Part shown: in pieces, positions 224 to 25,570 of the stretch
Numbering within the stretch: the first letter of the stretch is position 1
Layout of the letters: every line of letters starts with the position of its first letter
NCBI GenBank assembly: GCA_050123335.1
Contig: JASFHH010000002.1
Location: 9,519-73,518 of the forward strand
Direction of reading: 5' to 3'
From: Gammaproteobacteria bacterium
GTDB taxonomy: Bacteria > Pseudomonadota > Gammaproteobacteria > UBA12402
DNA length: 64,000 nucleotides
The notes under the pieces: model-generated
Told to the model about the DNA's origin: nothing
Databases searched by the model: none
The model's input: the letters and a program-made list of their open reading frames with translations, nothing else
Position numbers and translations under genes: made by a program

Positions 224-583
224 ATGTCTTTTCAAATACTTATCGGAGTTTTTAAAAAACGTCAAATTGCTGATAAAGTACAAGAGGAAATTGAGCGCGG
301 CATAAAAACCGGGTTTACTAAAAAACATTTTTTTAATTATGACTTTAGTGATGATTTTAATATTAATTCTGACGATGAATTTGAGGGAAAAATAGAAGTG
401 TTAATTCGTAATGAAACTGAAGTAATACTCGAAGGCAAAGAAGAAAAGGTTAAAGATTTTTTTAATAAACATAAAAATTCAATATGTAAAATTGTAAAAG
501 ATTATCAACAAAAAAATGACAACAATGAATTTCAAAATGAAAACGATGAATATGAAACTGTAATTATACCACATTTTAAGTAA
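224..583 (+). CDS. hypothetical small acidic protein (119 aa)
   Basis: ORF with a GGAGGTG Shine-Dalgarno 6 nt upstream of the ATG. The protein is acidic and Lys/Glu/Asn-rich; no recognisable motif. Confidence 0.35.
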   Translation: MSFQILIGVFKKRQIADKVQEEIERGIKTGFTKKHFFNYDFSDDFNINSDDEFEGKIEVLIRNETEVILEGKEEKVKDFFNKHKNSICKIVKDYQQKNDNNEFQNENDEYETVIIPHFK

Positions 584-596
584 ACGTTAAGTTTTT

Positions 597-4630: not shown

Positions 4631-4687
4631 CTAAAATTATAGAAAATACATCAATAAAAAAAGAATTTTATCAATTGCATTGCTGAT

Positions 4688-5932
4688 CTAAATTTTTGGG
4701 GTCATTATAGGTTTATCAGATGTTCGGATAATGATGTCGTTGAGTTTTTTTGTTTTAGTCAGCGAAAGCATTTTTTTTCGTGAGAGTATAGTTTCTTTTT
4801 GTGAAAACTCATGTATAAAATTAGTTATTTTTCTCATGTATATTTTATGTTTTTTATAACAACTAAAGTTATACATAGAGCCATCCTCGTATATAACAAT
4901 AATTTTTGGTGGATTTGTGATATTACACCCAACCATATGATAAGCATTTTGATATACAGCAATTTTTATAATTTTTTGGTCAGGAAATTTATTATTCTTG
5001 TTATTAGAATAATAGGTAATCTTTTTTAGTTTCTTATTTTTCTGTAAAGCAAAAAATTTTTTGTCACTAAATATGTAAATTGATTTACCAAAATAGTCCA
5101 TAAATAAGTATTCTACATTGATTTGATTATTAGGGATATTTTTTAAATATAGTTTGCCTTCTATTAATTCTAAAAAGTTTTTTAGATCCCATGGCCCAAT
5201 AACCGATTTTTTCCCTAGGTAAATCCAGCCATTTCTTAGAGTTTTAAAAAAAGTCATGTTACGATATTTGACAATATCTATTATTTTGTATTTACTTAAT
5301 TGTTCTAGTTCTTTAAATGACACTGTGCCTTTTTGGATGAATCTTATCATTTGATAAACTTTGGTTTTGTGACTATTTATTTCTTCAATAAAATACATAG
5401 AATTATGGGTTTTTATAACGTTATATGGGTTTTTAAAACATATTTTTGATTCAGTCTCGAACATAACCTTCACGAATTTGTGATTTTTTTTGATGTCACA
5501 AAAAACCATGCTTGTATTTTTAGCTTGCAGCACAATAAAGTTATTATTCGCCTTAATATTTGTGATTTTTATTTTTTTGCTTATGCCTTTTAGAAGTTCA
5601 GGGTTTGAGCATTCGTGTATATATTGATCACCAAAAGACCCTTCAGAATTAAAATAATCTGTACCTAAAGAACCCATGATATATATCTCATTTTTATCAG
5701 TTAGGAATAAACTGCCATAATGAGAGACAGTGGCAACGTCGATAATGTTAAATTTAGATAAGTTTGCTATCGGAATGGGTCTGCTTATTAATGTTTCTTT
5801 GCTAAAGCCCAGTAATGGCATATGGTTATTACTAAATTGTTCAGTAGATTTTGCCGTGTAATAAACTTTTCCATCAGTACCTAGAAATAAAGTATGAAAG
5901 TACCCAATACTAATTTTTTTGATTTTAAACAT
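4688..5932 (-). CDS. hypothetical Lys/Asn-rich protein, possibly beta-propeller (RCC1-like) repeat, effector-like
   Basis: Very AT-rich 414-aa ORF. Recurring G-[ST]-D-G-x-[VI]-Y / LGTDYF-like segments are weakly reminiscent of RCC1 blades. No catalytic motif recognised. Confidence 0.4.
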   Translation of the reverse strand: MFKIKKISIGYFHTLFLGTDGKVYYTAKSTEQFSNNHMPLLGFSKETLISRPIPIANLSKFNIIDVATVSHYGSLFLTDKNEIYIMGSLGTDYFNSEGSFGDQYIHECSNPELLKGISKKIKITNIKANNNFIVLQAKNTSMVFCDIKKNHKFVKVMFETESKICFKNPYNVIKTHNSMYFIEEINSHKTKVYQMIRFIQKGTVSFKELEQLSKYKIIDIVKYRNMTFFKTLRNGWIYLGKKSVIGPWDLKNFLELIEGKLYLKNIPNNQINVEYLFMDYFGKSIYIFSDKKFFALQKNKKLKKITYYSNNKNNKFPDQKIIKIAVYQNAYHMVGCNITNPPKIIVIYEDGSMYNFSCYKKHKIYMRKITNFIHEFSQKETILSRKKMLSLTKTKKLNDIIIRTSDKPIMTPKI

Positions 5933-6141
5933 TGTGTAAGTTTGCCAAATGTCACGACTAATTTTATTTGATATTCACCATTTATCAGAAAATATCACTA
6001 TTTATTACAAATAATAGTAGTTAAATCTTAAGGTTTTATTAACAAAAGCAAAAAAACGAAAGAATTTTTTTGCTTTAATAAAAGAATCGCCATTACTGTT
6101 AGTATCTTCTAACGATCCGCAATCATCCGTTATAGTCAAAA

Positions 6142-6669
6142 TCAAGGCAAAAAGTTGTTTTTTAACTCAACATAACAATCAGCGCTATAGCGCAGTAATT
6201 GTTTTTCCTGTTCGGTTAGTTTGCGAATTTGTTTTGCAGGCGAACCCAAATATAAATAACCACTTTCTAGAGTTTTGTTCGATGGTACAAAGCTTGCAGC
6301 GCCTAAAATGACTTCGTCTTCAATAATTGTTCCGTCAAGGATAGTAGATCCCATGCCGATTAAACATAAATTGCCGATGGTGCAGCCATGCAAAATTACG
6401 TTGTGTCCCACTGTAGTATTTTCGCCAATAATTAACGGTCGTCCTCCGGGGTAAAATTCACAATCAGGGCTTGTGTGTAAAGTTGAGTTATCTTGAATAT
6501 TAGTGCGCTTACCGATCGAAATATAGTTAACATCACCGCGAAGTACCGCCATCGGCCAGATAGAGACATCTTCAGCAATCTCAACTTGTCCAATCACTTT
6601 GGCCATAGAGTCAACAAATGCAGTTTTAGCTATTTTAGGTGTGTGTTTTTGGTATTTGCAAATGTTCAT
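6142..6669 (-). CDS. gamma-class carbonic anhydrase / hexapeptide-repeat (LbH) family protein (YrdA/PaaY-like)
   Basis: Left-handed beta-helix hexapeptide repeats. Conserved histidines in the pattern ...NIQDNSTLH... and ...GHNVILHGC..., typical of the gamma-CA family. 175 aa. Confidence 0.8.
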   Translation of the reverse strand: MNICKYQKHTPKIAKTAFVDSMAKVIGQVEIAEDVSIWPMAVLRGDVNYISIGKRTNIQDNSTLHTSPDCEFYPGGRPLIIGENTTVGHNVILHGCTIGNLCLIGMGSTILDGTIIEDEVILGAASFVPSNKTLESGYLYLGSPAKQIRKLTEQEKQLLRYSADCYVELKNNFLP

Positions 6670-6744
6670 AGGGTATTAATTTAACATAAATTAGGATACT
6701 TGCAACCATCAATTCAGCGTGCGTGCTAACTTATAGAAGTAAAT

Positions 6745-8823
6745 TTATGTCTTTTTCATTTTGTTGCCAATTTTAGTCAGGTTTTTGTGAGTTTCTTTTA
6801 GAATATTTATTTCAGTAATGTTGTCACAATTACTAAATAGCAAGGAAATATTTGTGGTATTATTGTTTTTAATTTTTTTAAAATATTTATTTCGGTTACT
6901 TTTTCCAGGAATAGTGTTCAGAACTGTCCAATAGAGAAATACTTTATTTTGCATAAAATCAGTAAATAATTTTGGGTTGTTTTCTGATAAGGCACAAAAA
7001 TTGGCAATCATACTAAATGCATTTTTCCAGATATGATTGTTTAATTTCTTAGCAAAAGACAAATTTTCATTAGAAATTAATTTTTCAAATAATTGTAACT
7101 TATCTTTTGCTTGTTTGTGGTTATTATTTAACAATTTTTTCTCATTTAATAGGGCAATAACTTGATTTTTGGTTAACATTTTTGTGTCTATGCAATTGCA
7201 TAAAAATTGTGAATTAATTAAATCAGGTCTCTTTTTCAAAAAACTAAATACTTGCTTATTTGTCCATAAGTTTAATTTATATAGCTTTGATAATGATTCT
7301 AATTTTATCAGATTAATTTTGTATTTTATAATATTTTGCGCAATGGGTTTATTTATTATCCCCAGCTTAAATAATAGCAATATGGTATTGAAGTTTTTTA
7401 CATGTTCTTTGTTTTTCATTAATTTAGATACATATTGCCGGTGTTTTGTAATAAACAAAAAATTTAAGCATTTTTTTGCTTCTTTACAAGATGTTGATGT
7501 TAATAATTTAGATAAATCTTCTTTTCGTGTCTGGTCAAAAATATTTATTATGGTGTTGATAAAATTTTCCATATGTCGCGGTTTAAAATCTTTTACTGAT
7601 TTTAAATCTTTATTACAAATCTTTAAAATTTCAAAAATGTGTAGCTTTTTGTTTACAAGTTTTATTTTGGGAAGATGTAGCAAAACCTGACAAGATGTAG
7701 AAACGTTATTGCTTTTGTTAAGCATTTTGTCTAAAGACAAATTTTTGATTAACATTTGATAAAAATTTTCATTTGCCAAGCATTTACAAATTATTTTTAT
7801 TTTTTCTTGCTCCGATTCTTTTGAGTTAATGTGTTTCAAAAAAATATCTAATAGAATTTTCTTAACATTTTGTAATTTTTTTATTTTTATGACTTTTAAA
7901 ACATCATCGAGAACACCATTGTGCAGCACTTTCTTTTTTTCTAATAATTTAGAAATTTCATTATGAGCTTTTAATTCCAGCAAAAATTCAATTTTACTAG
8001 CTAAATCCAGATTTTTATCATTTAAAATCTTTTGTTTAAAATCAACTTCACTGTATGCAACCGTTATTTCAGATGGTTTTTTGTGGTTTTTATTGTTAAT
8101 AGTTTGCTGCAAACATTTTATCATTTTACTGAAATAAGAATTTTTGTCCTGTTTGGCTTTTGTTATTATATTTGAAATATTTTTAATGTCTCCAAAACAG
8201 CATAAAGCCAACAATTTTTCAGCTTGTCCATAAGTTAATTCATCATTAGGATTACCAAAGATTTTTTGTGTCTCTTCTTTAGTAAAATTGGGCCATTTGT
8301 TTATTTGAACAGTTTTATAAAAAATTCCGTTTTTGATCTTAATGGTAAAAACAACATTAAAGTCGCTTTGGTCAAGCTTTTTCATTCCATCATCTTGTAA
8401 TTCTTTAAGTAAAATCTTTAGCCGCATCGTATGCGTTACACAATTATTTGATTGCTCAGATAAAAAATTCTGAATAGAGTGAGAATCAATATCAAAAAAT
8501 TCTAAATTAAATGCATTGAATTTTGTGCTCTTTTGGTTTAAAACTTTATTGATATTAATTATGAACTTTGTGATACCGCTATAATTCTTTTGTTGTAAAT
8601 GTGTTATAAAAAGACGGGCAAATTGCAATCCTAACTGATTTTCAAATACTTTATACTTTTCATAAAATGGCTTTTTTCTTGATAAAAGATAGCCGTTAAT
8701 AATATTTGTTGAGCGTAAAAGGTCTAATTGTACTTGTGAGAGTTTTGTATCTTTGTTTCCGTAGGAAGTATAGCTTATATAGAAATTCAGAAGTTCTTTT
8801 AAGGTTATGTATTTACTCAACAT
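6745..8823 (-). CDS. large hypothetical Lys/Asn/Leu-rich protein, effector-like
   Basis: 692-aa ORF with very low GC and no recognisable enzymatic motif. Composition resembles Legionellales translocated effectors. Confidence 0.45.
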   Translation of the reverse strand: MLSKYITLKELLNFYISYTSYGNKDTKLSQVQLDLLRSTNIINGYLLSRKKPFYEKYKVFENQLGLQFARLFITHLQQKNYSGITKFIININKVLNQKSTKFNAFNLEFFDIDSHSIQNFLSEQSNNCVTHTMRLKILLKELQDDGMKKLDQSDFNVVFTIKIKNGIFYKTVQINKWPNFTKEETQKIFGNPNDELTYGQAEKLLALCCFGDIKNISNIITKAKQDKNSYFSKMIKCLQQTINNKNHKKPSEITVAYSEVDFKQKILNDKNLDLASKIEFLLELKAHNEISKLLEKKKVLHNGVLDDVLKVIKIKKLQNVKKILLDIFLKHINSKESEQEKIKIICKCLANENFYQMLIKNLSLDKMLNKSNNVSTSCQVLLHLPKIKLVNKKLHIFEILKICNKDLKSVKDFKPRHMENFINTIINIFDQTRKEDLSKLLTSTSCKEAKKCLNFLFITKHRQYVSKLMKNKEHVKNFNTILLLFKLGIINKPIAQNIIKYKINLIKLESLSKLYKLNLWTNKQVFSFLKKRPDLINSQFLCNCIDTKMLTKNQVIALLNEKKLLNNNHKQAKDKLQLFEKLISNENLSFAKKLNNHIWKNAFSMIANFCALSENNPKLFTDFMQNKVFLYWTVLNTIPGKSNRNKYFKKIKNNNTTNISLLFSNCDNITEINILKETHKNLTKIGNKMKKT

Positions 8824-9107
8824 ATTTTTACCGCCTGATATTATTATTTACAGGTAGTATAGTACGCAAAAAGACATTTCGCTGATGATCAGGGCGCTTC
8901 GACTTTAACTATTTGATAAATTGTGTGTTTTACTGTTTGTGGCAGATTTTGATCAAGAATCGGGGCGAATTTTAAAGTTACAATTTCGTGCAAAAAAATG
9001 CATGTTTTATGTGATTTCCTATAGATTTTATAGTAAAATGCTTACATAAATGATCAGGTATGTCTTGTTGATCAGTTATACAAGAGAATAGAAGGGAGGG
9101 TATAATA

Positions 9108-9296
9108 ATGGCTACAATAACGAAAGAGACAAATTTGCGAATCGGATTGGTTGGTTGTGCCGCCTTTTTTCAACATCACCGCGAAGAAGCGGAGTTTTTA
9201 GTGTCTAATCCTAATCTTCAGAAAAAGCTTGATGCTAGTGAACCGTTAAAAGGGGATCAAGAGATAGATCTGAATGAGATTAATTATTTCAGGTAA
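9108..9296 (+). CDS. small hypothetical protein (62 aa)
   Basis: Strong RBS (GAAGGGAGGG) upstream of the ATG. No homology recognisable. Confidence 0.25.
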   Translation: MATITKETNLRIGLVGCAAFFQHHREEAEFLVSNPNLQKKLDASEPLKGDQEIDLNEINYFR

Positions 9297-9492
9297 GCTA
9301 TAATTTTTTTGCTACAGTTGCGGTACCAGTATCGTTTTTATCAATAAGGTTGAAAGGGCGTAAATGCGCTTTAAAAATAACCGCAAGAATTGCTAAAATC
9401 ACAAATACAAAAATCAATATTCCTAGTATAAATTTATTGCTTGTTTTCACATGAGTTCCTTAATAAAATTAACTCCCTATAAGGAACAGCAT

Positions 9493-11391: not shown

Positions 11392-11844
11392 ATGACCGAG
11401 CAAGAAGTTCGTAATGTTGCAATAAAATTATTGGCGCAACGTGAACATTCACGTTATGAATTACAAAGTAAATTATTAATTCGTAAATATGATCGCGCAG
11501 TCATTGAAAAAGTATTGGACGAATTAAGTCAGACAAATTTACAAAGTGATATTCGCTTTGCGCAAAGTTATACGCGGATGAAAATGGCGCGAGGTTTTGG
11601 TCCAATACGTATTCGCCAAGAACTGCACGATCGTGGGATTGCTGATGATTTAATTGAAGAATGTTTGGCGATAAGTTTAGATGCATGGATGCAGGAAATA
11701 ATTAAAGTGCGGAGTAAAAAGTTTGGCTCTGACGTACCGCACGATTATGAGGAGCGTGCTAAACAAATGCGTTTTTTGCAATATCGAGGTTTTACTACTG
11801 AACAAATAAAACGAGGAATGAGATCGATCGATGAAAACAGCTAA
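11392..11844 (+). CDS. recX: RecA regulator RecX
   Basis: Lies immediately downstream of recA. It is a 150-aa helical protein with the conserved RecX pattern (...LLAQREHSRYELQSKL...). The recA-recX-alaS synteny supports the call. Confidence 0.85.
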   Translation: MTEQEVRNVAIKLLAQREHSRYELQSKLLIRKYDRAVIEKVLDELSQTNLQSDIRFAQSYTRMKMARGFGPIRIRQELHDRGIADDLIEECLAISLDAWMQEIIKVRSKKFGSDVPHDYEERAKQMRFLQYRGFTTEQIKRGMRSIDENS

Positions 11845-14383
11845 ATTACGAAAAGTTTTTTTAGATTATTTTCAAAAAAAACAACATGAAATAGTTGCTA
11901 GCAGTTCTTTAGTGCCAGAAGATGATCCAAGTTTGTTTTTTGTTAATGCGGGCATGGTGCCATTTAAAAATGTATTTTTAGGTAGAGAAAAAAGACCTTA
12001 TGTTCGTGCGACTTCAGTGCAAAAATGTATGCGGGTTAGCGGAAAGCATAATGATTTAGAACAGGTTGGTTTTACTGCACGCCATCATACTTTCTTTGAA
12101 ATGCTAGGCAATTTTAGTTTTGGTGATTATTTTAAGCGTGAAGCGATTCAGTATGCGTGGGAATTTTTGACTGATGTTTTAAAAATTCCTGCAGAAAAAT
12201 TATGGATAACAGTTTATAAAGATGATCAGGAAGCTGCTGATATTTGGCTAAAAGAAATAAAAATTGATCCAAAACAATTTTCTAGATGTGGAGAAAAAGA
12301 TAATTTTTGGGCGATGGGTGATATTGGTCCTTGTGGCCCTTGCTCAGAAATTTTTTATGATCATGGTGATAAATTTTCTGGTGGTCCTCCGGGTTCTCCA
12401 GATGAAGATGGTGATCGGTATGTAGAAATTTGGAATTTAGTGTTCATGCAGTATAACCGCGATCATAATGGTAATTTAACTCCATTACCAAAACCATCAA
12501 TAGATACTGGTATGGGTTTGGAACGAGTTGCGGCGGTAATGCAAGGAGTGCATAGTAATTACGATATTGATTTATTTCAAGATTTACTTAAAGCTGTTGC
12601 TGATGTTGTTGGTGCAAAAGATTTTGATGATCCTGGATTAAAAGTCATTGCTGACCACATTCGTGCAAGTGTATTTTTAATTGCAGATGATGTGTTACCA
12701 TCCAATGAAGGCAGGGGTTATGTGTTGCGCCGTATTATTCGGCGTGCAATTAGGTATGGAAATAAATTAGGAATGAGTAGGCCATTTTTTTATAAATTGG
12801 TTGCACCATTGGTTAAAATCATGGGTGATGCTTACCCAGAAATTTCCACAGCACAGCATTTTATTGAAAAAACCATATTGCATGAAGAAGAACAATTTGC
12901 CAAAACTTTACATCTTGGTTTAAAGATTTTAGAAGAAGACATTGCACATTTAAAAACAAAAGTTATTCCGGGTGGGATAGTGTTTAAATTATATGATACT
13001 TATGGCTTTCCGGAAGATTTAACTGCAATTATTGCGCGTGAGCGTGGTTTAGAAATTGATATAAAAGGTTTTGAAAAAGAAATGCAACAACAGCGTAATC
13101 GTTCAAAAGCTTCCAGTCAGTTTAAAACTGATTATAATCTTGAATTGCCCGAGATGTCAGCTACTAAATTTATTGGTTATGATAATTTAACTTGCGATGG
13201 TAAAGTTTTAGCTTTGCTGCAAAATAATAAGTTGGTAGATGAATTAAATAATGGTGAGGGTGCAATTGTTTTAGACTGTACCCCGTTTTTTGCTGAAGCT
13301 GGTGGACAAATTGCCGATACAGGTGAAATTAAATTGGCTTCCGGCATTTTTGCGGTACATGATACGCAAAAAATCGGTAATGTGATTGTGCACTTTGGGA
13401 AAATGCAGCAAGGGAAATTACATACTGATGATAAAGTTACTGCTTGCGTTTCTCCTGATAATCGCCGCGCAGTTGCATTGAATCACACAGCAACACATTT
13501 GTTACATGCAGCGTTGCGTAAAGTTTTAGGTAAACATGTAAAACAAAAAGGTTCTTTGGTTGCAGCTGATCGGTTGCGTTTTGATTTTTCTCATCCTAAT
13601 CCGGTTACACCAAAAGAATTATATCAAGTTGAAGAATTGGTTTATGCACAAATTTTATCGAATTGTCCGGTAGAAACTAATATTATGGCACCGAATGATG
13701 CAATGAAAATGGGTGCTATGGCATTATTTGGTGAGAAATATGGTGAAAAAGTTCGTGTGTTAAGTATTGGCGATTTTTCATTAGAGCTTTGTGGTGGCAC
13801 ACATGTGCAACGCACTGGCGATTTAGGTTATTTTCGTATCATTAGCGAAACAGGTGTGGCTGCAGGAGTGCGTCGAATTGAAGCAGTAACAGGTTGGGGT
13901 GCTTCACAATTTGTTTTACAACAAGCAGAGCATAATCATGCAGAGCTTGCGCAATTACAATTACAAAAACGCGAATTGCAAAAGAGCATTGAACAACTTA
14001 AAAATAAATTGGCTGGAAGTTTTGTAAATGATTTAGCGAATGCCGCAAAAAAAATTAACGATATAAATGTTTTAACCGCAATAGTTTCTGATGTTGATGT
14101 AAAAGGTTTGCGCACATTATTAGATCAATTAAAAAATAAATTTGATGAAGCAGTGATTGTGTTAGCAACAACTAAAAATAATGTGGTTAATTTAGTTGCA
14201 GGTGTAACAAAAAGTTGCACAAATCGTTTTCATGCTGGTGAAATAGTAAACATTGTTGCTAAAAAAATAGGCGGAAAAGGTGGTGGTAGAAAAGATTTAG
14301 CACAAGGTGGTGGCAATAATTTAAACGAATTAAATAATGCATTAATTCTTGTTGAAAAGTATGTTAAAGAAGGTATAAAATAA
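11831..14383 (+). CDS. alaS: alanine--tRNA ligase
   Basis: Class II aaRS motifs of AlaS (FTARHHTFFEMLGNFSFGDY; editing domain HTATHLLH...CGGTH). The 5' end overlaps the recX 3' end by 14 nt. Confidence 0.95.
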   Translation: MKTAKLRKVFLDYFQKKQHEIVASSSLVPEDDPSLFFVNAGMVPFKNVFLGREKRPYVRATSVQKCMRVSGKHNDLEQVGFTARHHTFFEMLGNFSFGDYFKREAIQYAWEFLTDVLKIPAEKLWITVYKDDQEAADIWLKEIKIDPKQFSRCGEKDNFWAMGDIGPCGPCSEIFYDHGDKFSGGPPGSPDEDGDRYVEIWNLVFMQYNRDHNGNLTPLPKPSIDTGMGLERVAAVMQGVHSNYDIDLFQDLLKAVADVVGAKDFDDPGLKVIADHIRASVFLIADDVLPSNEGRGYVLRRIIRRAIRYGNKLGMSRPFFYKLVAPLVKIMGDAYPEISTAQHFIEKTILHEEEQFAKTLHLGLKILEEDIAHLKTKVIPGGIVFKLYDTYGFPEDLTAIIARERGLEIDIKGFEKEMQQQRNRSKASSQFKTDYNLELPEMSATKFIGYDNLTCDGKVLALLQNNKLVDELNNGEGAIVLDCTPFFAEAGGQIADTGEIKLASGIFAVHDTQKIGNVIVHFGKMQQGKLHTDDKVTACVSPDNRRAVALNHTATHLLHAALRKVLGKHVKQKGSLVAADRLRFDFSHPNPVTPKELYQVEELVYAQILSNCPVETNIMAPNDAMKMGAMALFGEKYGEKVRVLSIGDFSLELCGGTHVQRTGDLGYFRIISETGVAAGVRRIEAVTGWGASQFVLQQAEHNHAELAQLQLQKRELQKSIEQLKNKLAGSFVNDLANAAKKINDINVLTAIVSDVDVKGLRTLLDQLKNKFDEAVIVLATTKNNVVNLVAGVTKSCTNRFHAGEIVNIVAKKIGGKGGGRKDLAQGGGNNLNELNNALILVEKYVKEGIK

Positions 14384-15072: not shown

Positions 15073-15276
15073 GTGATGCTGATTTTAACAAGACGTACAG
15101 GAGAAAGTTTGATTATAGGGGATGATGTTACAGTAACTGTGCTTGGTATTAAAGGTAACCAAGTACGTATTGGAGTAAACGCTCCAAAGGAAGTTTCTGT
15201 TCATCGCGAAGAAATATATCAGCGTATTCAGGATGAGAAACAAGGAAAGGGAAGTAGCGACAGCGATAAGGAATAA
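15073..15276 (+). CDS. csrA: carbon storage regulator CsrA (RsmA)
   Basis: [48 protein letters not shown] is the canonical CsrA sequence. The leader has two GGA motifs, one of them in the SD. Confidence 0.95.
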
Positions 15277-15552
15277 TGTTTCTGACGACTGTTAGAAATA
15301 TCTTGATAAAGGAATGTTTGGTTCTTGTTTATGTAGTTGCGTGTAATCTGCGCGTATTTATATACCCATCACGATCGAATTTTTTCTAAACCAAAACATC
15401 TAATTCTAAACGCAATTCGGCGCATTACAAAACGGAAAGCCTGATCATAATAGGTATCGTATGTCATTTATTTTTACTGTAAAATCTGTGTAATTTTCTC
15501 AGCTTGCAACGGTCTAATTCTCAAGTTATACTCAGCCGTTTTAGAATACTTT

Positions 15553-15647
<95 letters not shown>

Positions 15648-15739
15648 TAATATGTAGATTTAGTATTAAGATAGAAAGAAGATTTAAAAAATTAGTTATA
15701 GCGGGGATGAGAACCCTCGCAATCGCAAAGCGATTGGAA

Positions 15740-15851
15740 GAGGGTTCGACAAAATCGGCAGGATAGCCGATTTTGAACGTCGAAGCGAAGCTTCGACGGC
15801 CCGAAGGGCGAGGACACAGGATGTGTCCGAGTAATCCCTCTCTCTCCGCCA
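15740..15851 (+). pseudogene. tRNA-Ser-like 3' fragment (T-arm + acceptor 3' strand + CCA) split in the T-loop by an ~85-nt structured insert
   Basis: GAGGGTTCGA | insert | ATCCCTC TCTCTCC G CCA. The insert contains the hairpins AATCGGCAGGATAGCCGATT and GAGGACACAGGATGTGTCCGAG. Confidence 0.5.
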
Positions 15852-15879
15852 TTTATATTACAGAGTAACATAAGCTTTT

Positions 15880-15953
15880 GCGCCCGTAGCTCAGCTGGAT
15901 AGAGTACCTGGCTACGAACCAGGCGGTCGGGAGTTCGAATCTCTCCGGGCGCG
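15880..15953 (+). tRNA. tRNA-Arg (anticodon ACG)
   Basis: 74-nt cloverleaf: acceptor GCGCCCG/CGGGCGC, anticodon loop CUACGAA, T-loop GGGAGTTCGAATCTCTC, discriminator G; CCA is not encoded. Confidence 0.9.
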
Positions 15954-15990
15954 CTTAGATTCAAAAAAAATCCACTTATAAGTGGTTTCG

Positions 15991-16845
15991 TTAGTTGCTT
16001 TTTTGTTGTTCTTCCTGTTGCTCGATTTGATTCAAATAATTTTTCTGTGATATGACTTGCTTCCCAGTTTCTTTTTCTAATTCCACGCGAGCATTGCCAG
16101 CAATTTTACCGCCTTTTTGCGCTGCATCTTTATTTGCATTAAAACCTTGTGCATTTTTGCTGCGAGTTATTTCTGTGGTTGATGCTTCACCAAGCATTGA
16201 AAAAATTAACTCTAGATCAGTCATGTGATCGCGCAAATTTTCTCGCTTGAGCTTTTTATGTTTTTTATATTCATTTGGTGTCATGCCAAAGGCAGCTTTG
16301 GAAATTTCTGCAGTTAAAATTGCGTATTCGCGTTGTTCTTTGACATCACGTTTTTTCCATTCCTCAGTTAATTCATCACGAATTGCAATACTGCGCATTC
16401 GTTTTTCAATCCAATCATCTGAGTAACCTTTGGCTTTGTAAATAGCGCGAGTACGTTTTGAGGCAAGCTCCGGATCCTCGATTTCCTGAATTCTCTCATA
16501 CCCAACTTTGGCTAACCATCTTTTGAACGGCTCAGCCTTGGGTGAGGGGATAGATTGAATTATGCGGAAAATTCCTTCGGTGTTGGCGGCGTTTAGCTTT
16601 TGTTTACCACCAGAAGTTTCAAAATAAAGGGGGGTGACAATTTGTCCCCACCCTTTGGTTAACTCGTTGTCTCTTATACGCATTTTTTTAATATAGTCAC
16701 TTGCATTAACTGAATCGGTTAATGCTTGTACAACATCGGCAATTACAAACCACCATTCCCCATTATGCATGGTTTTGCGTATATTTTTGCCTTTAAAGAC
16801 AGCAATTTTGGTTGATGACTCAATAGTTGTATTATTCTTGTTCAT
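15991..16845 (-). CDS. Bro-N domain (phage antirepressor-like) protein
   Basis: The N-terminus (...AVFKGKNIRKTMHNGEWWFVIADVVQALTDSVNASDYIKKM...) matches the Bro-N/KilA-N-type DNA-binding fold that is frequent on mobile elements. Immediately adjacent to tRNA-Arg. Confidence 0.6.
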   Translation of the reverse strand: MNKNNTTIESSTKIAVFKGKNIRKTMHNGEWWFVIADVVQALTDSVNASDYIKKMRIRDNELTKGWGQIVTPLYFETSGGKQKLNAANTEGIFRIIQSIPSPKAEPFKRWLAKVGYERIQEIEDPELASKRTRAIYKAKGYSDDWIEKRMRSIAIRDELTEEWKKRDVKEQREYAILTAEISKAAFGMTPNEYKKHKKLKRENLRDHMTDLELIFSMLGEASTTEITRSKNAQGFNANKDAAQKGGKIAGNARVELEKETGKQVISQKNYLNQIEQQEEQQKSN

Positions 16846-17080
16846 GATTGTACCTCCTTTTTGATTTTTTTATTTTGCATCTAAAAACCTCTATTTCATC
16901 CGTGAAATCTTGAATTGCCCAAATCATTTGATAAATTGTATCACGATCAAGTTCTAGCTCCCCTTCCTGAGTAGCTAGCAGACCACTTATGATCGCTTGT
17001 ATTTTGATGAATCTTTCATCTATTGCATCTTGCAAATCTAGTTCTGAAAGTGAAGGATTAAGCAGAAAAATATTATCCAT
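16832..17080 (-). CDS. small hypothetical protein (82 aa)
   Basis: ORF overlapping the start of the Bro-N gene by 14 nt (operon-like). No motif. Confidence 0.3.
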   Translation of the reverse strand: MDNIFLLNPSLSELDLQDAIDERFIKIQAIISGLLATQEGELELDRDTIYQMIWAIQDFTDEIEVFRCKIKKSKRRYNHEQE

Positions 17081-17395
17081 AAATCACCCGTTTTTATTTT
17101 GAATTAAATATGCATCAACAAAATTTATATTGATGTCCGGGATTTTACAGGTTAGCCTTCCTGCCGTGTGAGTGTTTCGAGCACCATTGTTACGATAAAT
17201 TTAATATGGGTGTTTGTCAATGATAAAAAACTTAAAAAAAGTTTTTTAATATAGTCAAATGTTTATTGGAAACAGAAAATTGCTTAAACTTTATTTAGAT
17301 TATAGGCTAAAATAAGCTGGATTGTAGCTGAAATAGCTATGTGTGAAAGATAAAGCAATGTAAATTGCAGCTATGTAACTGTAGGAGATGTAGCG

Positions 17396-18643
17396 ATGAA
17401 AATAGCTTTTTTGATAGAAGGGTATAAGTTAGATTATAAATGCCGAAGCATCCAATGGGCAATTAATTTAGCAAAAAAAAATTCTGCTTTAATATTTGAT
17501 ATTATTGAATCATGTTCGCCTATACATTTGAGCGAGGCACTTCGCTTGTTTCCTAAAAAAGAATGGGCTTTTTGCGTACTGGGATGGATTACTACTTTAG
17601 AAAATCATGGAAGAGATTTGAAAAACATTATAACTTTAATTAAGTGGTGTTTTGAAAATCTTATCAAAGAAGGTCATATAAAAAAAATACCAACTTACCT
17701 AGAAAACTTATATGATCAAAGCAAAAAATCAAAATTAAATTTTGAGAAAGCAAAGGTTATGTTAGATAAACACATTCCAAAAGAATATACATCATCAGAT
17801 AAAATTGAAAAATTCTCTCAAAAATTAAATAAAATAATGAATGAAACCAGTAATAAGTTGTCTAGAATAAATTTTCTAAAATGGCTAGAAAAAAACAAGG
17901 AAGTCCGGGAAATTTTTGTTTATGTTGGGGAGAATCATATTGATTTTTGTGATTCCATAGAAAAAGTAAAGATAATTAAAAAAAGTAATGATATGCGAAG
18001 ATTATGTGTAAATATATTTGGTAAAAATGTTTATATTAATATATTTAGAGTAACACATAGAGATGTCAAGTATTATGAGTCTGATGTCAAGCATTATGAG
18101 TCTATGGAGCAATTTGCAAAAGGGCGTGGTCTTATAATTCCAAAAAATACCTCACAAATAATTCAAGATACCTCACAAATAATTCAAGATACCTCACAAA
18201 TAATTCAAGAAGACCTCTTGCAGACAAATCGTGGTCTTGTGAATGATTTATTGCTTGCTTGGAGTTATGCTAATGATGCACTTAAAAAATTAATTGAACG
18301 TGGTGAAAAAAAACCAGTATTTTCCAGCAAGTTTCCAAAAAAACAGTTTTCAGAAAAAAAGTTTCCAAAAAAAGTCAAGTTTGATTTGCATAAATGCGTT
18401 CAAAAATTTGATTTTTGGATGAAGTATTATAATCATTTTAATACAACAGATACACAAGAGCTGTATGCTTGGTTACATGCAGATAGAGGTAGTAGGTTAG
18501 TGTCTGAATATAGTGATTTTTGTAAATTGGCTGAAGCTTTAAAGAAAAAGAAATATAATATTATATTCCCTCTTTCAGAATTTAAGTTTAAAGAGAATAT
18601 GAAGATAGCGCATTCTCGCGAAAAAGAATACTCTATGATTTAA
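17396..18643 (+). CDS. hypothetical protein with in-frame tandem repeats
   Basis: 415-aa Lys-rich ORF. It contains 3x TSQIIQD (21-nt units), 2x DVK[YH]YES and KFPKK repeats. Confidence 0.4.
   Translation: MKIAFLIEGYKLDYKCRSIQWAINLAKKNSALIFDIIESCSPIHLSEALRLFPKKEWAFCVLGWITTLENHGRDLKNIITLIKWCFENLIKEGHIKKIPTYLENLYDQSKKSKLNFEKAKVMLDKHIPKEYTSSDKIEKFSQKLNKIMNETSNKLSRINFLKWLEKNKEVREIFVYVGENHIDFCDSIEKVKIIKKSNDMRRLCVNIFGKNVYINIFRVTHRDVKYYESDVKHYESMEQFAKGRGLIIPKNTSQIIQDTSQIIQDTSQIIQEDLLQTNRGLVNDLLLAWSYANDALKKLIERGEKKPVFSSKFPKKQFSEKKFPKKVKFDLHKCVQKFDFWMKYYNHFNTTDTQELYAWLHADRGSRLVSEYSDFCKLAEALKKKKYNIIFPLSEFKFKENMKIAHSREKEYSMI
18149..18211 (+). repeat. 3 tandem copies of a 21-nt unit (ACCTCACAAATAATTCAAGAT) inside the CDS
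   Basis: Read directly from the sequence. The copies are in frame and encode TSQIIQD x3. Confidence 0.85.
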
Positions 18644-18652
18644 TTTTTTTAA

Positions 18653-18680
18653 CTGCGAACCAGGCGGTCGGAAGTTCGAA
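18653..18680 (+). repeat. partial tRNA-Arg 3'-half copy (CTGCGAACCAGGCGGTCGGAAGTTCGAA) followed by an AAAAAATTGCAGG motif
   Basis: Near-identical to the anticodon-stem-to-T-loop segment of the tRNA-Arg at 15880-15953. It is truncated within the T-loop. Confidence 0.55.
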
Positions 18681-18786
18681 AAAATTGCAGGGGCAGATTA
18701 TTTTTGATTTAGAACTAATTGAATAAGTCGAAATTAAAATAGTTTTTGCATCAAGTTACTATTGATGTAATAGCTTAGACTGTTTG

Positions 18787-19953
18787 CTAATGGTTTTGCA
18801 GTAATTTAATTAAGTCTTCAATATTGATAAAAGTAACCACAATGTCATCATATTGTTTTTGATAGCTTTCGTTGACGTCAAAGCCTACAACAAAATTTTC
18901 TCCTTTAGGGTAATGCTTGCGAAAAATATGTAAACTTTTGGAGTTAAATGTGTCGGCGCTCCATTTGCATTCAATAGCAATAGGTTCTTTTCGATTACGT
19001 TTTTTGAGATAAATAAAGTCTATTTCATGACGTCTTTTGTCTCTCCAATAGTAAATATTTCTGGTTTGCAAATTACCGTGTAATTCGTTTAATACACAAT
19101 GCTCCCACAACAAACCCATATCATCCGTTCTTAATTTGTGCCAACTTTTAGCATAACAAATCATTCCTGTATCAAAACCATAAACTTTAGGTGCAGAGAT
19201 AATTTCGGAAGGCAGGTGGGAATTAAAAGGTCTAACAATGTGTGCAACAAATGTCGCTTCTAAAACTGAAAGATAATTTGATATTGTTGTTCTGCTAACT
19301 TCACAAGGAGAAGTAAATCTAGTTGCTTCAAAAATATTGCCGCTTTGAGTAAATAATAATTCAACAAATTTTTGAAAAGAATGACGTCGTTCTAATCTAA
19401 ATAATTCTTGAATATCTTTAGCCCAATAGGAATCTATCCATTCGAGAAATTCTTTTTCAGGAAATTCTTTTGACATAAAAAATGGGGGTAAGCCACCATG
19501 CAATAATCGATGTTCAATTTTTTTATTTCCAAAGATTTTAGACTCAGATAATAACATTGGTGTTAACCACAGTTCTGTTTTGCGTCCTGTTAATGTGTCG
19601 CCAAATTTACTGGATGCGCCAAGTGTGGATGAGCCTGTTGCAATGATTTTAATATCCGAAAAATGATCTGCTGCGATTTTTAATAGTTCAGATGGATTGG
19701 TTAATCTATGAATTTCATCCAGTACCAGACGCCCGCCGTTTTTGCTTGTCAAAAATAATTCTGCGTTTTCCATTTGTTTGCGCACGCTAGGAAGCTCACA
19801 ATCGTAGTAATCGACATTATCCAAGCTTCTGCAGAGGCAAGTTTTGCCTACGCGCCTAACGCCAGATAGCCAGAGGATAGATTTTCTTTCCCAGGCTTGT
19901 TCAATTTTATTTTTCCAAAAAATACGTTCTTTCATGGTTTGCTCCAAATGCAA
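18787..19953 (-). CDS. AAA+ ATPase, DUF4143-type
   Basis: Walker A GVRRVGKT; architecture and length (388 aa) are typical of the ATPase/DUF4143 family common in islands. Confidence 0.7.
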   Translation of the reverse strand: MHLEQTMKERIFWKNKIEQAWERKSILWLSGVRRVGKTCLCRSLDNVDYYDCELPSVRKQMENAELFLTSKNGGRLVLDEIHRLTNPSELLKIAADHFSDIKIIATGSSTLGASSKFGDTLTGRKTELWLTPMLLSESKIFGNKKIEHRLLHGGLPPFFMSKEFPEKEFLEWIDSYWAKDIQELFRLERRHSFQKFVELLFTQSGNIFEATRFTSPCEVSRTTISNYLSVLEATFVAHIVRPFNSHLPSEIISAPKVYGFDTGMICYAKSWHKLRTDDMGLLWEHCVLNELHGNLQTRNIYYWRDKRRHEIDFIYLKKRNRKEPIAIECKWSADTFNSKSLHIFRKHYPKGENFVVGFDVNESYQKQYDDIVVTFINIEDLIKLLQNH

Positions 19954-20138
19954 CTATGATTGCATATAGTTTAACTATATGCAACTATAAATGCAAATAG
20001 TTTATCCACTTTTGTCTTAATCAATAACCTCGCGTGTGAGATTCGCGTGATTGGGTTCTCATAAGTTGGCATTTGTACGTGTTTGCAATGGGCATCCGCA
20101 TTTAAAAAATTATTAAAAATCAAAGTATTACGTTTAAA

Positions 20139-20360
20139 TGCGCGTGCTACGAACCAGGCGGTCGGGAGTTTGACAAATCGGCAGGATAGCCGATTTGCAC
20201 AACTTTGCATAGCAAAGTTGCCCGAAGGGCGAGGCACAAGGAAGTGCCGAGTGAAAAAATTGCAGGATTGCAATTTTCGACGTTTTATGCAGCAAAACGC
20301 CTGCAGGGTGATGCGCCATGGAAGGCGCATCATTAATCTCTCCGGGCGCGCTTAGATTCA
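20139..20360 (+). pseudogene. tRNA-Arg-derived pseudo-copy: 5' piece GCGCGTGCTACGAACCAGGCGGTCGGGAGTT + ~170-nt insert + 3' piece TCTCTCCGGGCGCGCTTAGATTCA
   Basis: Both pieces match tRNA-Arg(ACG) plus its immediate 3' flank. The insert shares the AATCGGCAGGATAGCCGATT and GCCCGAAGGGCGAGG-ACA-GGA-GTG-CCGAGT hairpins with the insert at 15750-15833. It also carries AAAAAATTGCAGGATTGCAATTTT. Confidence 0.55.
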
Positions 20361-20429
20361 GCAGATAAATCAAGCGGTTATAACGTTAGTCCTCAGCCGC
20401 TTTTTTTGTTTCCATGCAACAGGTGTTAA

Positions 20430-21032
20430 ATGAGCGATGCTAAACATTGGGATGCTAAATGGGCAACCCAAAATAAAAGCAAAAAAAATAATTTTGCAAA
20501 AAGAGCCTATGCTTTAATGAAGCAATATGGCCTAAGAACAATATTAGATATTGGTTGTGGAGATGGTAGAGACTCATTATATTTTGCCAACCAAGGTTTA
20601 CAAGTAACAGCCGTAGATTTTGCGGAGAATACAATTAGAAAATTAAAAGAGAACAATACACAAATAAGCTGGTTATCGCAAGATATCAGAGAAATTGCTT
20701 TTGACACTAATTCTTTTGATGCTGTTTATGCTCACTTAAGTATTCAATATTTCAATGATAAAATAACGGAGCACATTTTTAATGCTTTATACGATATTTT
20801 AAAAAAAGGCGGGTTGGTTTTTATTAAATGCAAATCGACAGATGATCCTTTATTTGGGAAGGGGGATAAAATGGGACAAAATATGTATATGACCACTCAT
20901 TTACGTCATTTTTTCTCGAAAAACTATATGGTGGAAAAATTGAAAAAATTTCATCTTCTTAACATACGCAAAACAACTTCAGTTTATGAGGGGAGAAAAT
21001 CATGTTTTATAGAGGCAGTAGCAATTAAGTAA
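20430..21032 (+). CDS. class I SAM-dependent methyltransferase
   Basis: LDIGCGDGRDSLYFANQG (motif I, GxGxG) and acidic motif II ...VTAVDFAE... 200 aa. Confidence 0.7.
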   Translation: MSDAKHWDAKWATQNKSKKNNFAKRAYALMKQYGLRTILDIGCGDGRDSLYFANQGLQVTAVDFAENTIRKLKENNTQISWLSQDIREIAFDTNSFDAVYAHLSIQYFNDKITEHIFNALYDILKKGGLVFIKCKSTDDPLFGKGDKMGQNMYMTTHLRHFFSKNYMVEKLKKFHLLNIRKTTSVYEGRKSCFIEAVAIK

Positions 21033-21165
21033 GGATTTTACCCTGCACACATGATGTGCGTGGTCGGGGGTTCAAAAAAATTGCAGGATTGAAAATTTTT
21101 AATGATTTCTTAAAAATCATGGGTAAAATTCTTAGTATATCAATATACCGTTTTGGGGGATTTAC

Positions 21166-21667
21166 TTTGATTATTCGTGCAGAGAAAGAATCGGATATAA
21201 CAAGAATATTTGAAATTACTAAGGAAGCTTTTAGAAATCATCCATATAGCCAGGGTACAGAACAATTTATTATAGATGCATTACGCAGAGATGGTGTGCT
21301 TACTATTTCCTTAGTTGCTGAGATTGATGGAAAAATAGTTGGACATATTGCTTTTTCTCCGGTGACTATTTCTGATGGCAGTAGCGATTGGTATGGACTT
21401 GGTCCTGTTTCTGTGCAGCCCGAATTTCAGCGGCAGGGTATTGGGAAAGCCCTTATTCTTGAAGGATTGTCTCAATTAGAGGCATTAGGCGCTCAAGGGT
21501 GTATTCTTGTAGGTGATCCAGCATACTATAATCGATTTGGATTTAAAAACTTTCCTAATTTAGCTATGAAGCATGTTCCTCAAGAATATGTTCTTGTTTT
21601 GCCTTTCTCTGAAAAGATAGCAAGTGGAGTGATTGAGCATCATCCTGATTTTTTTGTTAAAGGATAA
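21166..21667 (+). CDS. GNAT family N-acetyltransferase (YhbS-like)
   Basis: ...GHIAFSPVTISDG...QRQGIGKALILEGL...GDPAYYNRFGF resembles E. coli YhbS. The start is placed at TTG (LIIRAEKE). The longer track ORF (21056) would read through the upstream tRNA-like repeat, so a later start is more plausible. Confidence 0.65.
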
Positions 21668-21753
21668 GTGGTTTTATCTGTAGTTTTATTGTCATTTTTT
21701 TTACAAGCATGGTAGATTATAAATAGGATGTTAGCTTAAAGTGGTGGTTATAA

Positions 21754-24583: not shown

Positions 24584-25570
24584 TTGCAGGGAATACTGAT
24601 GAGGAATTTTGCGAGATTTGTTTTATTGTTTTGTTCATGGTTGTTTTGTGTTGTTTGTAATGCAAGTGAAGTACATAGTGTCGCATTCTGCTATAGTTAT
24701 AATCCGCCGATTGAAAGACTAAAACAGTTTCAAATTGTTGTGGTTGATCCGGATAGTAAATTAAATCCAAAAAAATTTAATTCTGATCATAGACAAGCTT
24801 TTGCATATGTTAACATTGGTGAGATACACCCAAGCAGGTGCTATTTTGCAAAATTACATCCAAAATTATGGTTATGGGGAAATCCTTACTGGGGGTCTAT
24901 GATTTTAGATCACAGTAATCACAAAACGCGTGCATTTATCATGAAGCATGTTATTGCACCAATATGGGATAAAGGTTATCGTGGATTTTTTCTTGATGGG
25001 TTAGATTCGTATAAAATTGTTCCTTATTTGCGTCAAGAAAGTAAAGTGCAGCATGAAGGAATATTAAGAATTATCTTAGCGATAAAGCATAAGTATCCAG
25101 AAGCTAAAATTATTTTGAACAGAGGTTTTGAGTTTTTGCCGAAAATCCATCATTTTGTTTATGCTGTTACAGCTGAATCTGTTTTTGCTGCCTGGAATCC
25201 CAAGGATAGAATTTATGAGAAAGTTCCTTTTTTTTATCGTCGGCTCACTGTTAGAAAATTAAAGCAAATAAAAGATAAATATAAATTACCAATTATAGTT
25301 ATTGATTATGTGTCACCTGAACAAGTTAATCGAAGCAATTTAATTGCTCACGAGATTCGTAAATTGGGTTTTATTCCATGGGTAACTGATTGGAAATTAT
25401 CTATGATTGGTGTTGGTAATAAGTATAATAATTTTATTACATCAAATTATACTCGAAAGTCAAAGAAAGGTTACATGTTGGAACGGTTTTATCCCTATTT
25501 TTATAGTAGCATCTTAAAAAAAATATATTTAAGATGGGGTACATTATTTTTTTATAAGATAAAAAATTAA
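24584..25570 (+). CDS. PelA N-terminal glycoside-hydrolase-domain paralog (stand-alone, 328 aa)
   Basis: Collinear similarity to residues ~30-300 of the upstream PelA (FAYVNIGE..., WDKGYRGFFLDGLDSY, LNRGFE, IDYV, LGFIPWV). Has a signal peptide but lacks the deacetylase half. Confidence 0.6.
   Translation: MQGILMRNFARFVLLFCSWLFCVVCNASEVHSVAFCYSYNPPIERLKQFQIVVVDPDSKLNPKKFNSDHRQAFAYVNIGEIHPSRCYFAKLHPKLWLWGNPYWGSMILDHSNHKTRAFIMKHVIAPIWDKGYRGFFLDGLDSYKIVPYLRQESKVQHEGILRIILAIKHKYPEAKIILNRGFEFLPKIHHFVYAVTAESVFAAWNPKDRIYEKVPFFYRRLTVRKLKQIKDKYKLPIIVIDYVSPEQVNRSNLIAHEIRKLGFIPWVTDWKLSMIGVGNKYNNFITSNYTRKSKKGYMLERFYPYFYSSILKKIYLRWGTLFFYKIKN

Follow-up and report, generated by a model that had tools for sequence, protein, structure and literature searches.

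A Structured Element in Displaced tRNA-Arg Remnants at a Probable Integration Hotspot Next to csrA in an Uncultured Gammaproteobacterium

Results

The csrA–tRNA-Ser–tRNA-Arg Locus and Its Displaced tRNA-Arg Remnants

The stretch of DNA analyzed here, called the window below, comprises 64,000 nucleotides (64 kb) of contig JASFHH010000002.1 (positions 9,519 to 73,518, assembly GCA_050123335.1). It was taken from a Joint Genome Institute (JGI) metagenome assembly and belongs to an uncultured low-GC gammaproteobacterium. The window has the gene order recA-recX-alaS (11831–14383), csrA (15076–15276), tRNA-Ser(GCT) and tRNA-Arg(ACG), which is identical to the order in Escherichia coli. Downstream of the intact tRNA-Arg gene, among cargo genes, lie three displaced remnants of it, which we call B, C and D, and a fourth repeat unit, A, lies between the two intact tRNA genes. 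We describe these remnants, the structured element that each of them holds in its T-loop, and the reasons for regarding tRNA-Arg(ACG) as a probable integration hotspot.

tRNA-Ser(GCT) (15553–15645, forward strand; ARAGORN, Rfam tRNA score of 59 bits) leads a tRNA operon located 3′ of csrA and is preceded by a promoter-like site at 15504–15532 that was picked up by promoter scan. tRNA-Arg(ACG) (15880–15954, forward strand; ARAGORN, 64 bits) was kept intact beside the insertion described below. Its 3′ half and adjoining flank (15912–15963) form the left copy of a direct repeat that resembles the left attachment (att) site of an integrated element, attL, and foreign DNA follows from 15964 on.

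An initial annotation of this DNA had reported partial copies of the tRNA-Arg 3′ half downstream of the gene. They were recovered at B (18653–18679) and at C (20147–20173 together with 20335–20360); D (about 21058–21075) is degenerate and only a weak tRNA copy. Positions 18657–18679 in B and 20151–20173 in the left part of C each reproduce 22 of 23 bases of the tRNA-Arg 3′ half, where 0 such matches are expected (100 shuffles), and the first base of both remnants is the same anticodon-loop position (CTA/GCGAACC). The right part of C (20335–20360) is an exact 26-nt copy of 15938–15963, including 9 nt of flank past the tRNA. Measured against 15912–15963, the direct-repeat stretches of C are exact over 25 and 26 nt, this distal copy being split by 161 nt. 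The segment 20335–20360 is the single right-hand tRNA end in the window, and a repeat search found no further tRNA-Arg remnants or right-hand ends elsewhere in the 64 kb.

Remnant B (18653–18786, forward strand) runs from the tRNA-Arg anticodon loop to TTCGA (18653–18679) and continues with a degenerate hairpin, AAAAATTGC AGGG GCAGATTATTTTT, which corresponds to hairpin 1 of the element described below. Its remainder is tentatively a wholly decayed unit that extends to 18786 and ends in TAAT..GCTTAGACT. Unit C (20139–20360, forward strand) consists of the tRNA-Arg 3′ half up to the T-loop (20147–20173), two cores in tandem, and then the rest of the tRNA with the 9-nt flank (20335–20360). Remnant D (21058–21114, forward strand) retains a degenerate 5′ strand of the tRNA-Arg T-arm (GTGGTCGGGGGTTCA), hairpin 1 (AAAAATTGCAGGATTGAAAATTTT) and then TAATGATTT. 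It shares with B the stretch GGTCGGrrGTTCrAAAAAATTGCAGG and about 15 more bases, some 45 nt in all that reach past the tRNA part; junction and hairpin are identical in the two and are followed in both by TTTTTnnTGATTT. Judged by this shared stretch, B and D appear to be truncated copies of one same junction.

That these copies reflect chance similarity or an assembly artefact, such as a chimeric contig joined at repeated tRNA-like sequence, is very improbable. It is true that the source is a metagenome assembly and that the contigs of several relatives end at or near tRNAs, a locus that is hard for assemblers. However, exact matches of 24–26 nt have an expectation of 0 in shuffles, the JGI gene calls on the source contig give the same gene order throughout, and the PelA protein encoded farther along the window is identical in an NCBI metagenome-assembled genome (MAG). 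In addition, B, C and D have each diverged by mutation and are therefore not collapsed repeats.

Empty Sites in Relatives and the Extent of the Insertion

Relatives were found by scanning genome contigs with the C-terminal half of AlaS, which returned one close locus (L001), one distant locus (L037) and 78 other loci that were irrelevant. Comparison of the locus in related strains, the check that the initial annotation had proposed, revealed that the region is lacking in L001 (15955–20334) and in L084 (15955 to about 46900).

In L001, the closest relative (AlaS 93–94% identical), tRNA-Ser, a 34-nt spacer and tRNA-Arg are followed directly by a homologue of window positions 20346–20406 (87% over 61 nt). 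Because the L001 tRNA-Arg runs directly into the sequence that follows C in the window, this alignment shows the 4.4 kb at 15955–20334 to be an insertion relative to L001, flanked on both sides by directly repeated copies of the tRNA-Arg 3′ half. On the right, the insertion that can be demonstrated is bordered by the flank at 20346–20406 (forward strand), which contains a terminator-like hairpin (AAGCGG...CCGCTTTTTTT) seen by eye and unlisted in the terminator scan.

A second group of relatives (L084–L087, AlaS 84%) has tRNA-Ser, a spacer of 20–35 nt, tRNA-Arg and zero repeat units, the L087 contig stopping just past tRNA-Ser. In L084, a nitroreductase-family gene begins about 80 nt after tRNA-Arg. 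Its orthologue in the window is the gene at 46974–47711 (forward strand, Pfam), on the same strand and with 78% amino acid identity over 223 aa by tblastx, and this gene is probably the ancestral right flank. The window tRNA-Arg and this L084-type neighbor at 46974 are now 31 kb apart. The hotspot DNA may therefore comprise about 31 kb, including the cargo genes, the pel operon, the YhcG nuclease and a lanthipeptide cluster, and the variable region probably reaches far beyond 21120.

Upstream of recA, the segments 4626–6132 and 6710–9072 have no counterpart in the contig of a 94% relative (L082); according to the JGI gene calls they hold a 692-aa open reading frame (ORF) and an RCC1/WD40-like ORF.

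An Integrase Family Found at the Same tRNA-Arg

Searching for integrases next to tRNA-Arg copies, also proposed in the initial annotation, was carried out in relatives and found them at this tRNA in L001, L212, L213 and L215. In L001, a 382-aa tyrosine integrase (PF00589) lies directly after tRNA-Arg, with the gene end about 35 nt from the tRNA, and beside it is a putative 81-aa excisionase-like ORF, the similarity of which was judged by eye. Homologues of the L001 integrase with about 70% identity number in the thousands. On each of three further contigs (L212, L213 and L215) the homologue was located at recA-recX-alaS-csrA-tRNA-Ser-tRNA-Arg(ACG), and all four members examined adjoin this tRNA-Arg. 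The distance from integrase gene end to tRNA 3′ end is 15 nt in L212 and 42 nt in L213, where the tRNAs were mapped. Since all contexts read show the integrase at tRNA-Arg(ACG), the tRNA-Arg next to csrA appears to be the dedicated attachment site of one conserved integrase family across Gammaproteobacteria. In L212 and L213, no right attachment site (attR) of this family was seen over 10 kb; an 18-nt match of 89% at L212:4151–4168 is insignificant.

Two of these islands have features of their own. The L212 island (1–9491) bears a TraI_2 relaxase and a TraG coupling protein and is similar to integrative and conjugative elements. In the L213 island a second CsrA paralogue is found beside the integrase (L213, 9602–9787).

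Unit A Between tRNA-Ser and tRNA-Arg

The spacer between tRNA-Ser and tRNA-Arg is 234 nt in the window, compared to 20–35 nt in L001 and L084–L086. It is occupied by unit A (15646–15855, forward strand), a tRNA-linked repeat unit of about 206 nt of the type known from E. coli RtT RNA. The order within unit A is a 5′ arm GCGGGGA, GATGAGAA, a hairpin ending in GAGGGTTCGA, a core at 15745–15835, and then AATCCCTCTCTCTCCGCCATTTA. The last of these (15833–15855) repeats the tRNA-Ser 3′ end over 23 nt, with 22 of 23 bases matching including flank, and about 85 nt separate GAGGGTTCGA from it. The predicted fold (z = −8.7) consists of an acceptor-like closing stem together with six other hairpins.

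Unit A is absent from all relatives compared (L001, L084–L087). Because it is missing from all three related lineages, it would have been gained in this genome or else lost at least twice. It is very probably transcribed, as it sits between two co-oriented tRNAs. Unit C is now 4.4 kb from the promoter of the tRNA operon. Neither unit A, which derives from tRNA-Ser, nor the tandem cores that split C in its T-loop had been noticed in the initial annotation.

The T-Loop Inserts Are Copies of a Structured Core

In B, C and D the element lies at TTCGA^A in the T-loop of the tRNA-Arg remnant. The initial annotation had pointed to the motif AAAAAATTGCAGG after each tRNA copy, and there are indeed three exact occurrences in the 64 kb, one per remnant, at 18679, 20254 and 21075. 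Allowing 1 mismatch gives 4 matches against a shuffle mean of 0.82, and 4 were also reached by 3 of 100 shuffles. The count by itself is mildly unusual, and the weight rests on the finding that all three exact copies coincide with tRNA remnants. The interpretation of the motif as a cargo-side junction or att signature is not supported, and the motif is absent from the L001 integrase island. It is instead hairpin 1 of a degenerate structured element: AAAAAATTGCAGG comprises the 5′ strand and loop of hairpin 1, in C that of the decayed core 2, and B and D keep hairpin 1 only, right after TTCGA.

From the core shared by these copies, the pattern GCCCGAAGGGCGAGG N8-30 CCGAGT was derived and searched in metagenomes and in 2.9 million viral contigs (IMG/VR). 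At least 120 metagenome stretches matched, compared to 1 viral contig, and a phage-borne origin of the core was rejected on that single match. Alignment of 54 metagenome copies gave the common architecture, a core of about 80 nt with four hairpins. Hairpin 1, the loop of which is often CAGGAnA, is followed by a closing helix, xAC/GUx, around hairpins 2–4. Inside this helix are hairpin 2, an invariant GCCC-GAA-GGGC, and hairpin 4 with the frequent loop A(N)GGAUG. The closing helix covaries from G:C to C:G, and several pairs occur as three or four pair types. Paired cells amount to 94%, versus 73% in shuffles, and the covariation score is 0.47, versus 0.13 in shuffled alignments; this score was reached by 0 of 500 shuffles, and slid controls scored 0.02–0.07.

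A covariance model, R1, was built from the 54 metagenome copies alone with the window excluded. Applied to the 64 kb, it found core 1 of C, which is intact (20169–20255, forward strand; 83 bits, E = 1e-20), the core of unit A (15745–15835; 54 bits, E = 1e-12) and the decayed core 2 of C (20256–20332, forward strand), which begins AAAAATTGCAGG and scores 12.7 bits (E = 0.2) with four hairpins in register. At D it matched hairpin 1 only (9 bits), and nothing else in the window was credible. The 161 nt that divide the two halves of C are tandem structured cores in the T-loop (RNA fold z = −5.3). Outside the window, R1 also matches three E. coli arg spacers (28, 23 and 17 bits) and 128 sites in 100 metagenome loci.

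GGA occurs in the hairpin 1 loop of 57 of 119 cores (48%) and in the hairpin 4 loop of 69 of 119 (58%), far above a chance expectation that we roughly estimate at 6%. Unit A has two GGA loops (GGCAGGAUAGCC and ACACAGGAUGUGU) and C has four.

The bare core matched no Rfam 15 family when 17 metagenome loci and the C region were scanned. Weak, sub-threshold matches to RtT and AaHKsRNA22 were obtained for tRNA-flanked copies only, and the similarities of single hairpins to the Rfam families sX7 and TwoAYGGAY were rejected as chance or partial. The core sequence was in no paper found by literature search, and the literature held nothing on a link between rttR and CsrA beyond co-mention.

Where the Element Sits in Other Genomes

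In the element-bearing metagenome loci, 26 of the 48 tRNA genes are tRNA-Ser. Many cores lie between GGTTCGA and the AATCC...CCA of a tRNA-Ser 3′ remnant, some of them in tandem (L154, L172), and the majority of copies are not adjacent to a tRNA. In L173 (570–740), a near-complete tRNA-Ser pseudo-copy beside the intact gene carries the core in its T-loop (GGTTCGA^ATCC). Other tRNA-Ser pseudo-copies carry it in the D-loop, at GGTCGA^AAGCGC or GGTTGA^A (L111, 303–378; L137, 6400–6483; L193; L089, 1671–1875). In most cases, pseudo-copies with a core have an intact tRNA-Ser(GCT) gene next to them, downstream of csrA. The common TCGA^A junction suggests site-specific placement. The possibility that the T-loop inserts are tRNA introns was rejected, as insert-bearing copies are truncated or stand beside intact genes (L173, L137, L178). 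The pattern scan also recovered the enterobacterial tyrT copies (L141, L146, L096).

csrA is present in 9 of 120 core loci, which represent the csrA-tRNA-Ser(GCT) locus. A special link between the core and csrA was set aside, since 9 of 120 matches the expectation from the tRNA-Ser(GCU) association alone.

Weak R1 matches (E = 0.002 to 0.01) were also seen upstream of tRNA-Ser in L085 (4062–4125) and L087 (4065–4128), and at an unrelated site in L001 (1517–1574). They keep hairpin 1 and a hairpin 4 with a GGAU loop, and they may be old, decayed cores.

The distribution of the element bears on a transposon explanation, which we consider doubtful. According to it, the element of about 80 nt would be the end-pair of a non-autonomous transposon that inserts at TCGA^A and carries cargo between hairpin 1 and hairpins 2–4. 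B and D would be the left ends of cargo copies (the DUF4143 gene and the genes from GNAT onward, respectively), core 2 of C would be an empty copy, and tRNA remnants would be preferred targets. The junction, hairpin and post-hairpin sequence common to B and D are in line with this proposal, as are the recurrent T-loop and D-loop sites in tRNA-Ser pseudo-copies, the tandem copies and the many copies at non-tRNA sites. So is the gain of unit A relative to all relatives, and RtT copies also differ among Erwinia strains (PMC7542023). However, no matching right ends are found 3′ of the cargo of B or D. For a transposon of the IS200/IS605 insertion sequence type or one resembling a miniature inverted-repeat transposable element, no transposase was evident in a search that was not exhaustive, and no filled/empty pair of the bare core was found. 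The interior of the element (hairpins 2–4, GCCCGAAGGGCGAGG and CCGAGU) is conserved and covarying across very different genomes, which transposon ends alone would not need, and the 2.9 million viral contigs yielded a single copy. Finally, what arrived with unit A was a whole RtT-type unit with a 23-nt tRNA-end duplication and not a bare core.

RtT-Type Units Without Islands

Similar units occur at tRNA-Arg in genomes where no island is present, which weakens the reading of B, C and D as traces of three integrations. In E. coli K-12, serV is followed by four tRNA-Arg(ACG) genes; three of these, argV, argZ and argQ, have a unit downstream, and every unit closes with the final 19 nt of tRNA-Arg. 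In L173 the single tRNA-Arg is followed directly by a unit ending in aatctctccgggcgcgcca, with no island.

These cases would fit the remnants being vestiges of an ancestral tandem tRNA-Arg array with RtT-type spacers, in which the tRNA genes decayed and the cargo arrived by unrelated events, with no site-specific integration. The variability of such units between Erwinia strains (PMC7542023) is in agreement with it. We nevertheless regard this scenario as unlikely. The closest lineages (L001; L084–L087) have one tRNA-Arg and no units, and repeated loss would be needed. B and C have no tRNA 5′ half, and both start at the same anticodon-loop base. C has neither the GATGAGAA motif nor the 5′ arm typical of RtT-type units, and relatives possess an integrase family dedicated to this tRNA.

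Cargo Genes and the Wider Region

The gene calls of the initial annotation (Bro-N, repeat protein, DUF4143 ATPase, SAM methyltransferase and GNAT) hold by Pfam. It had also described the blocks as low in GC, which is correct for the block of the 415-aa protein (24–30%); the remaining blocks (31–41%) are in the range of the flanks (33–39%).

Block 1 (15964–18652) contains the Bro-N gene (15991–16845, reverse strand), an 82-aa ORF (16832–17080, reverse strand) and a gene for a 415-aa protein (17396–18643, forward strand). The Bro-N protein was recognized by Pfam, by PHROG anti-repressor families and by the PADLOC family PDC-S13 (E = 2.8e-114). The 415-aa protein had no Pfam, PHROG or PADLOC match; its gene holds three 21-nt tandem repeats (18144–18210) that encode TSQIIQD three times. 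A terminator-like hairpin, CCACTTATAAGTGG, was found on both strands at 15972–15985 by terminator scan.

Block 2 is the gene for an AAA_14 and DUF4143 ATPase (18787–19935, reverse strand; Pfam; PADLOC PDC-S01, E = 4e-58). Just upstream of it, at 19948–20004, are two 26-nt direct repeats that are mutually palindromic (ATGCAACTAT.ATTGCA.ATAGTTTA) and look like an operator. Block 3 encodes an S-adenosylmethionine (SAM)-dependent methyltransferase (20430–21032, forward strand) and block 4 a GNAT acetyltransferase (21119–21667, forward strand), both by Pfam. A 36-nt similarity between 15978–16013 and 21664–21699 (72%) was considered as an outer repeat and dropped as chance-level.

Beyond block 4 lies a pel polysaccharide operon, from pelA at 21754 to the end of pelG at 35283, in which Pfam also recognized PelB, PelD and a glycosyltransferase. 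The operon holds an extra GH114 paralogue (24584–25570). PelA of the window is 58–60% identical to the PelA of relatives (L208 and L210 compared), although AlaS is 84–94% identical. The pel genes of relatives are at other loci, and in the L001 MAG the PelA gene (58%) adjoins uvrA on a separate contig. The pel operon may have been acquired by, or relocated into, the tRNA-Arg hotspot.

A YhcG/DUF1016 PDDEXK nuclease gene follows (35487–36506; Pfam; PADLOC PDC-S02, E = 1e-145), and between the pel operon and the ancestral flank there is a class II lanthipeptide-type cluster (36662–46759). Pfam identified in it a C39-peptidase ABC exporter (37599–39743), a second ABC protein (39749–42640) and a LanM-like gene with DUF4135 and LANC_like domains (43541–46759, reverse strand). 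Bro-N, DUF4143 and YhcG belong to the PADLOC defence-island candidate families PDC-S13, PDC-S01 and PDC-S02, which would give the region a defence-island flavor.

Discussion

We hold it to be moderately probable that tRNA-Arg(ACG) in the conserved csrA-tRNA-Ser-tRNA-Arg locus serves as an integration hotspot, at which this genome has accumulated strain-specific DNA and lost the recombinase, and that a second phenomenon is superimposed on it, namely a structured element in the T-loop of each displaced remnant. DNA would have entered via tyrosine integrases of the family that is found at this very tRNA in Gammaproteobacteria, both related and unrelated ones. Later deletion of the integrase and of parts of the att sites would have left a remnant similar to a cis-mobilizable element (CIME). 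RtT-type structured units lie in the T-loop of every displaced tRNA-Arg remnant and of the upstream tRNA-Ser remnant, and they offer a better explanation of the shared motif than an att arm. Of the repeated integration and decay put forward in the initial annotation, one insertion of at least 4.4 kb with tRNA repeats, and with an integrase at the same tRNA in relatives, is supported, and integration followed by decay is a reasonable account of the region overall; three separate integrations are not demonstrable from a single right-hand end.

Several observations weigh against this hotspot interpretation. The window contains no integrase, as the initial annotation had stated; tblastn with the L001 integrase and a family hidden Markov model run on all ORFs of at least 70 aa found neither an integrase of that family nor a remnant of one. 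It also contains no excisionase or other recombinase. There is one right-hand tRNA end for three left-hand pieces, and B and D may be duplicates of one junction rather than separate integration scars. The L001-type attR was unseen as contigs end, and we infer that the start of B and C is the start of the att identity of the family. The L001 tRNA flank that matches the sequence after C could be part of the ancestral chromosome, or it could be where an L001-type island has its left end. The far end near 46.9 kb is marked by neither a tRNA-Arg remnant nor another repeat, and the figure of 31 kb rests on synteny with one 84% relative, which a rearrangement could explain. Atypical composition is limited to the block of the 415-aa protein.

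The element itself is most likely a structured RNA module made within tRNA-operon transcripts. A more far-reaching proposal, which we put forward as a speculation with a low chance of being right as a whole, is that the core is an undescribed and very widespread RNA module (hairpin 1, a closing helix round hairpins 2–4, and the invariant GCCCGAAGGGCGAGG...CCGAGU) that inserts at TCGA^A in the T- and D-loops of tRNA and tRNA-like sequences, above all tRNA-Ser. It would yield RtT-type pseudo-tRNA RNAs that are cut from tRNA-operon transcripts, its two GGA hairpins would bind a dimer of the CsrA family, and E. coli RtT would be one degenerate member of a large protein-titrating family.

As an island, the region is an ordinary decayed mosaic without integrase at a tRNA hotspot, and the useful addition is the integrase family apparently dedicated to the tRNA-Arg(ACG) beside csrA. 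The element ties the E. coli RtT RNA and the serV-argVYZQ spacers to a much larger family with clear covariation and an architecture resembling a four-way junction. If it is a functional or mobile RNA, the R1 model and its alignment are a concrete basis to test RtT-type function. For annotators, the locus is a reminder that tRNA fragments with a common motif need not be att sites.

Comparison with Known Systems

The region shares with tRNA islands and CIME-type remnants the site at a tRNA 3′ end, the direct repeats of the tRNA 3′ half, the absence from relatives, the cargo of accessory and defence-candidate genes, and the integrase at the same tRNA in a relative. It differs from them in having no recombinase, in the splitting of the distal att-like copies in the T-loop by a structured element, in its one complete right-hand repeat and in an outer boundary at about 46.9 kb that is devoid of a repeat.

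Hairpins with GGA in the loop are the type of site bound by CsrA. Similar to CsrB, CsrC and RsmX-Z, the units have several loops with CAGGAU, AAGGAA or AUGGAA (two in A, four in C), and csrA is the next gene upstream. Unlike them, the units have no Csr/Rsm match in Rfam (E ≤ 1 to 10), GGA loops are found in about half of the element family, and the link to csrA is no stronger than the link to tRNA-Ser predicts.

In Rfam, the core of unit A is matched best by AaHKsRNA22 (RF02902), a small RNA of Aggregatibacter, with which it shares the order ACAAAA, hairpin, UUUUGAACGU, hairpin, ACGGCCCnAAGGGCGAG, hairpin and CGAGU. The score of unit A is 30.2 bits, compared to a gathering score of 39.8 bits.

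The E. coli serV-argV-argY-argZ-argQ spacers are situated at the orthologous locus, alaS-csrA-tRNA-Ser(GCU)-tRNA-Arg(ACG). They score 29–31 bits with the Rfam RtT model, under its gathering score, and 17–28 bits with R1. In contrast to the window, they stand between tandem tRNA genes that are intact, no protein-coding cargo intervenes, and they contain no tRNA anticodon or variable region.

Bösl and Kersten reportedly described RtT RNA in 1991, along with the 178-bp repeats found in the tyrT operon of E. coli. The RtT family (Rfam RF00391) differs from the window copies in several respects. Unit A scores 27 bits, compared to a gathering score of 45 bits, and unit C has no RtT match. The window copies have long GGA-loop hairpins that the E. 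coli RNA does not have, and unit C is built on the tRNA-Arg 3′ half from the anticodon loop on, with two cores and no RtT 5′ arm. In both, however, the unit is found 3′ of a tRNA gene in the same orientation, and its terminal ~19 nt are those of that tRNA, from AATCC in the T-loop. In A this end is 15833–15851 against the tRNA-Ser end, and in C it is 20335–20351, exact against the tRNA-Arg end. The motifs GATGAGAA, GGTTCGA, GCCCGAAGGGCGAGG and CGAGUAAUCC are common to both, and the alignment of unit A covers model positions 1–130 with linkers and hairpin order kept. On these sequence correspondences, the element is evidently homologous to E. coli RtT and to the serV-argVYZQ spacers.

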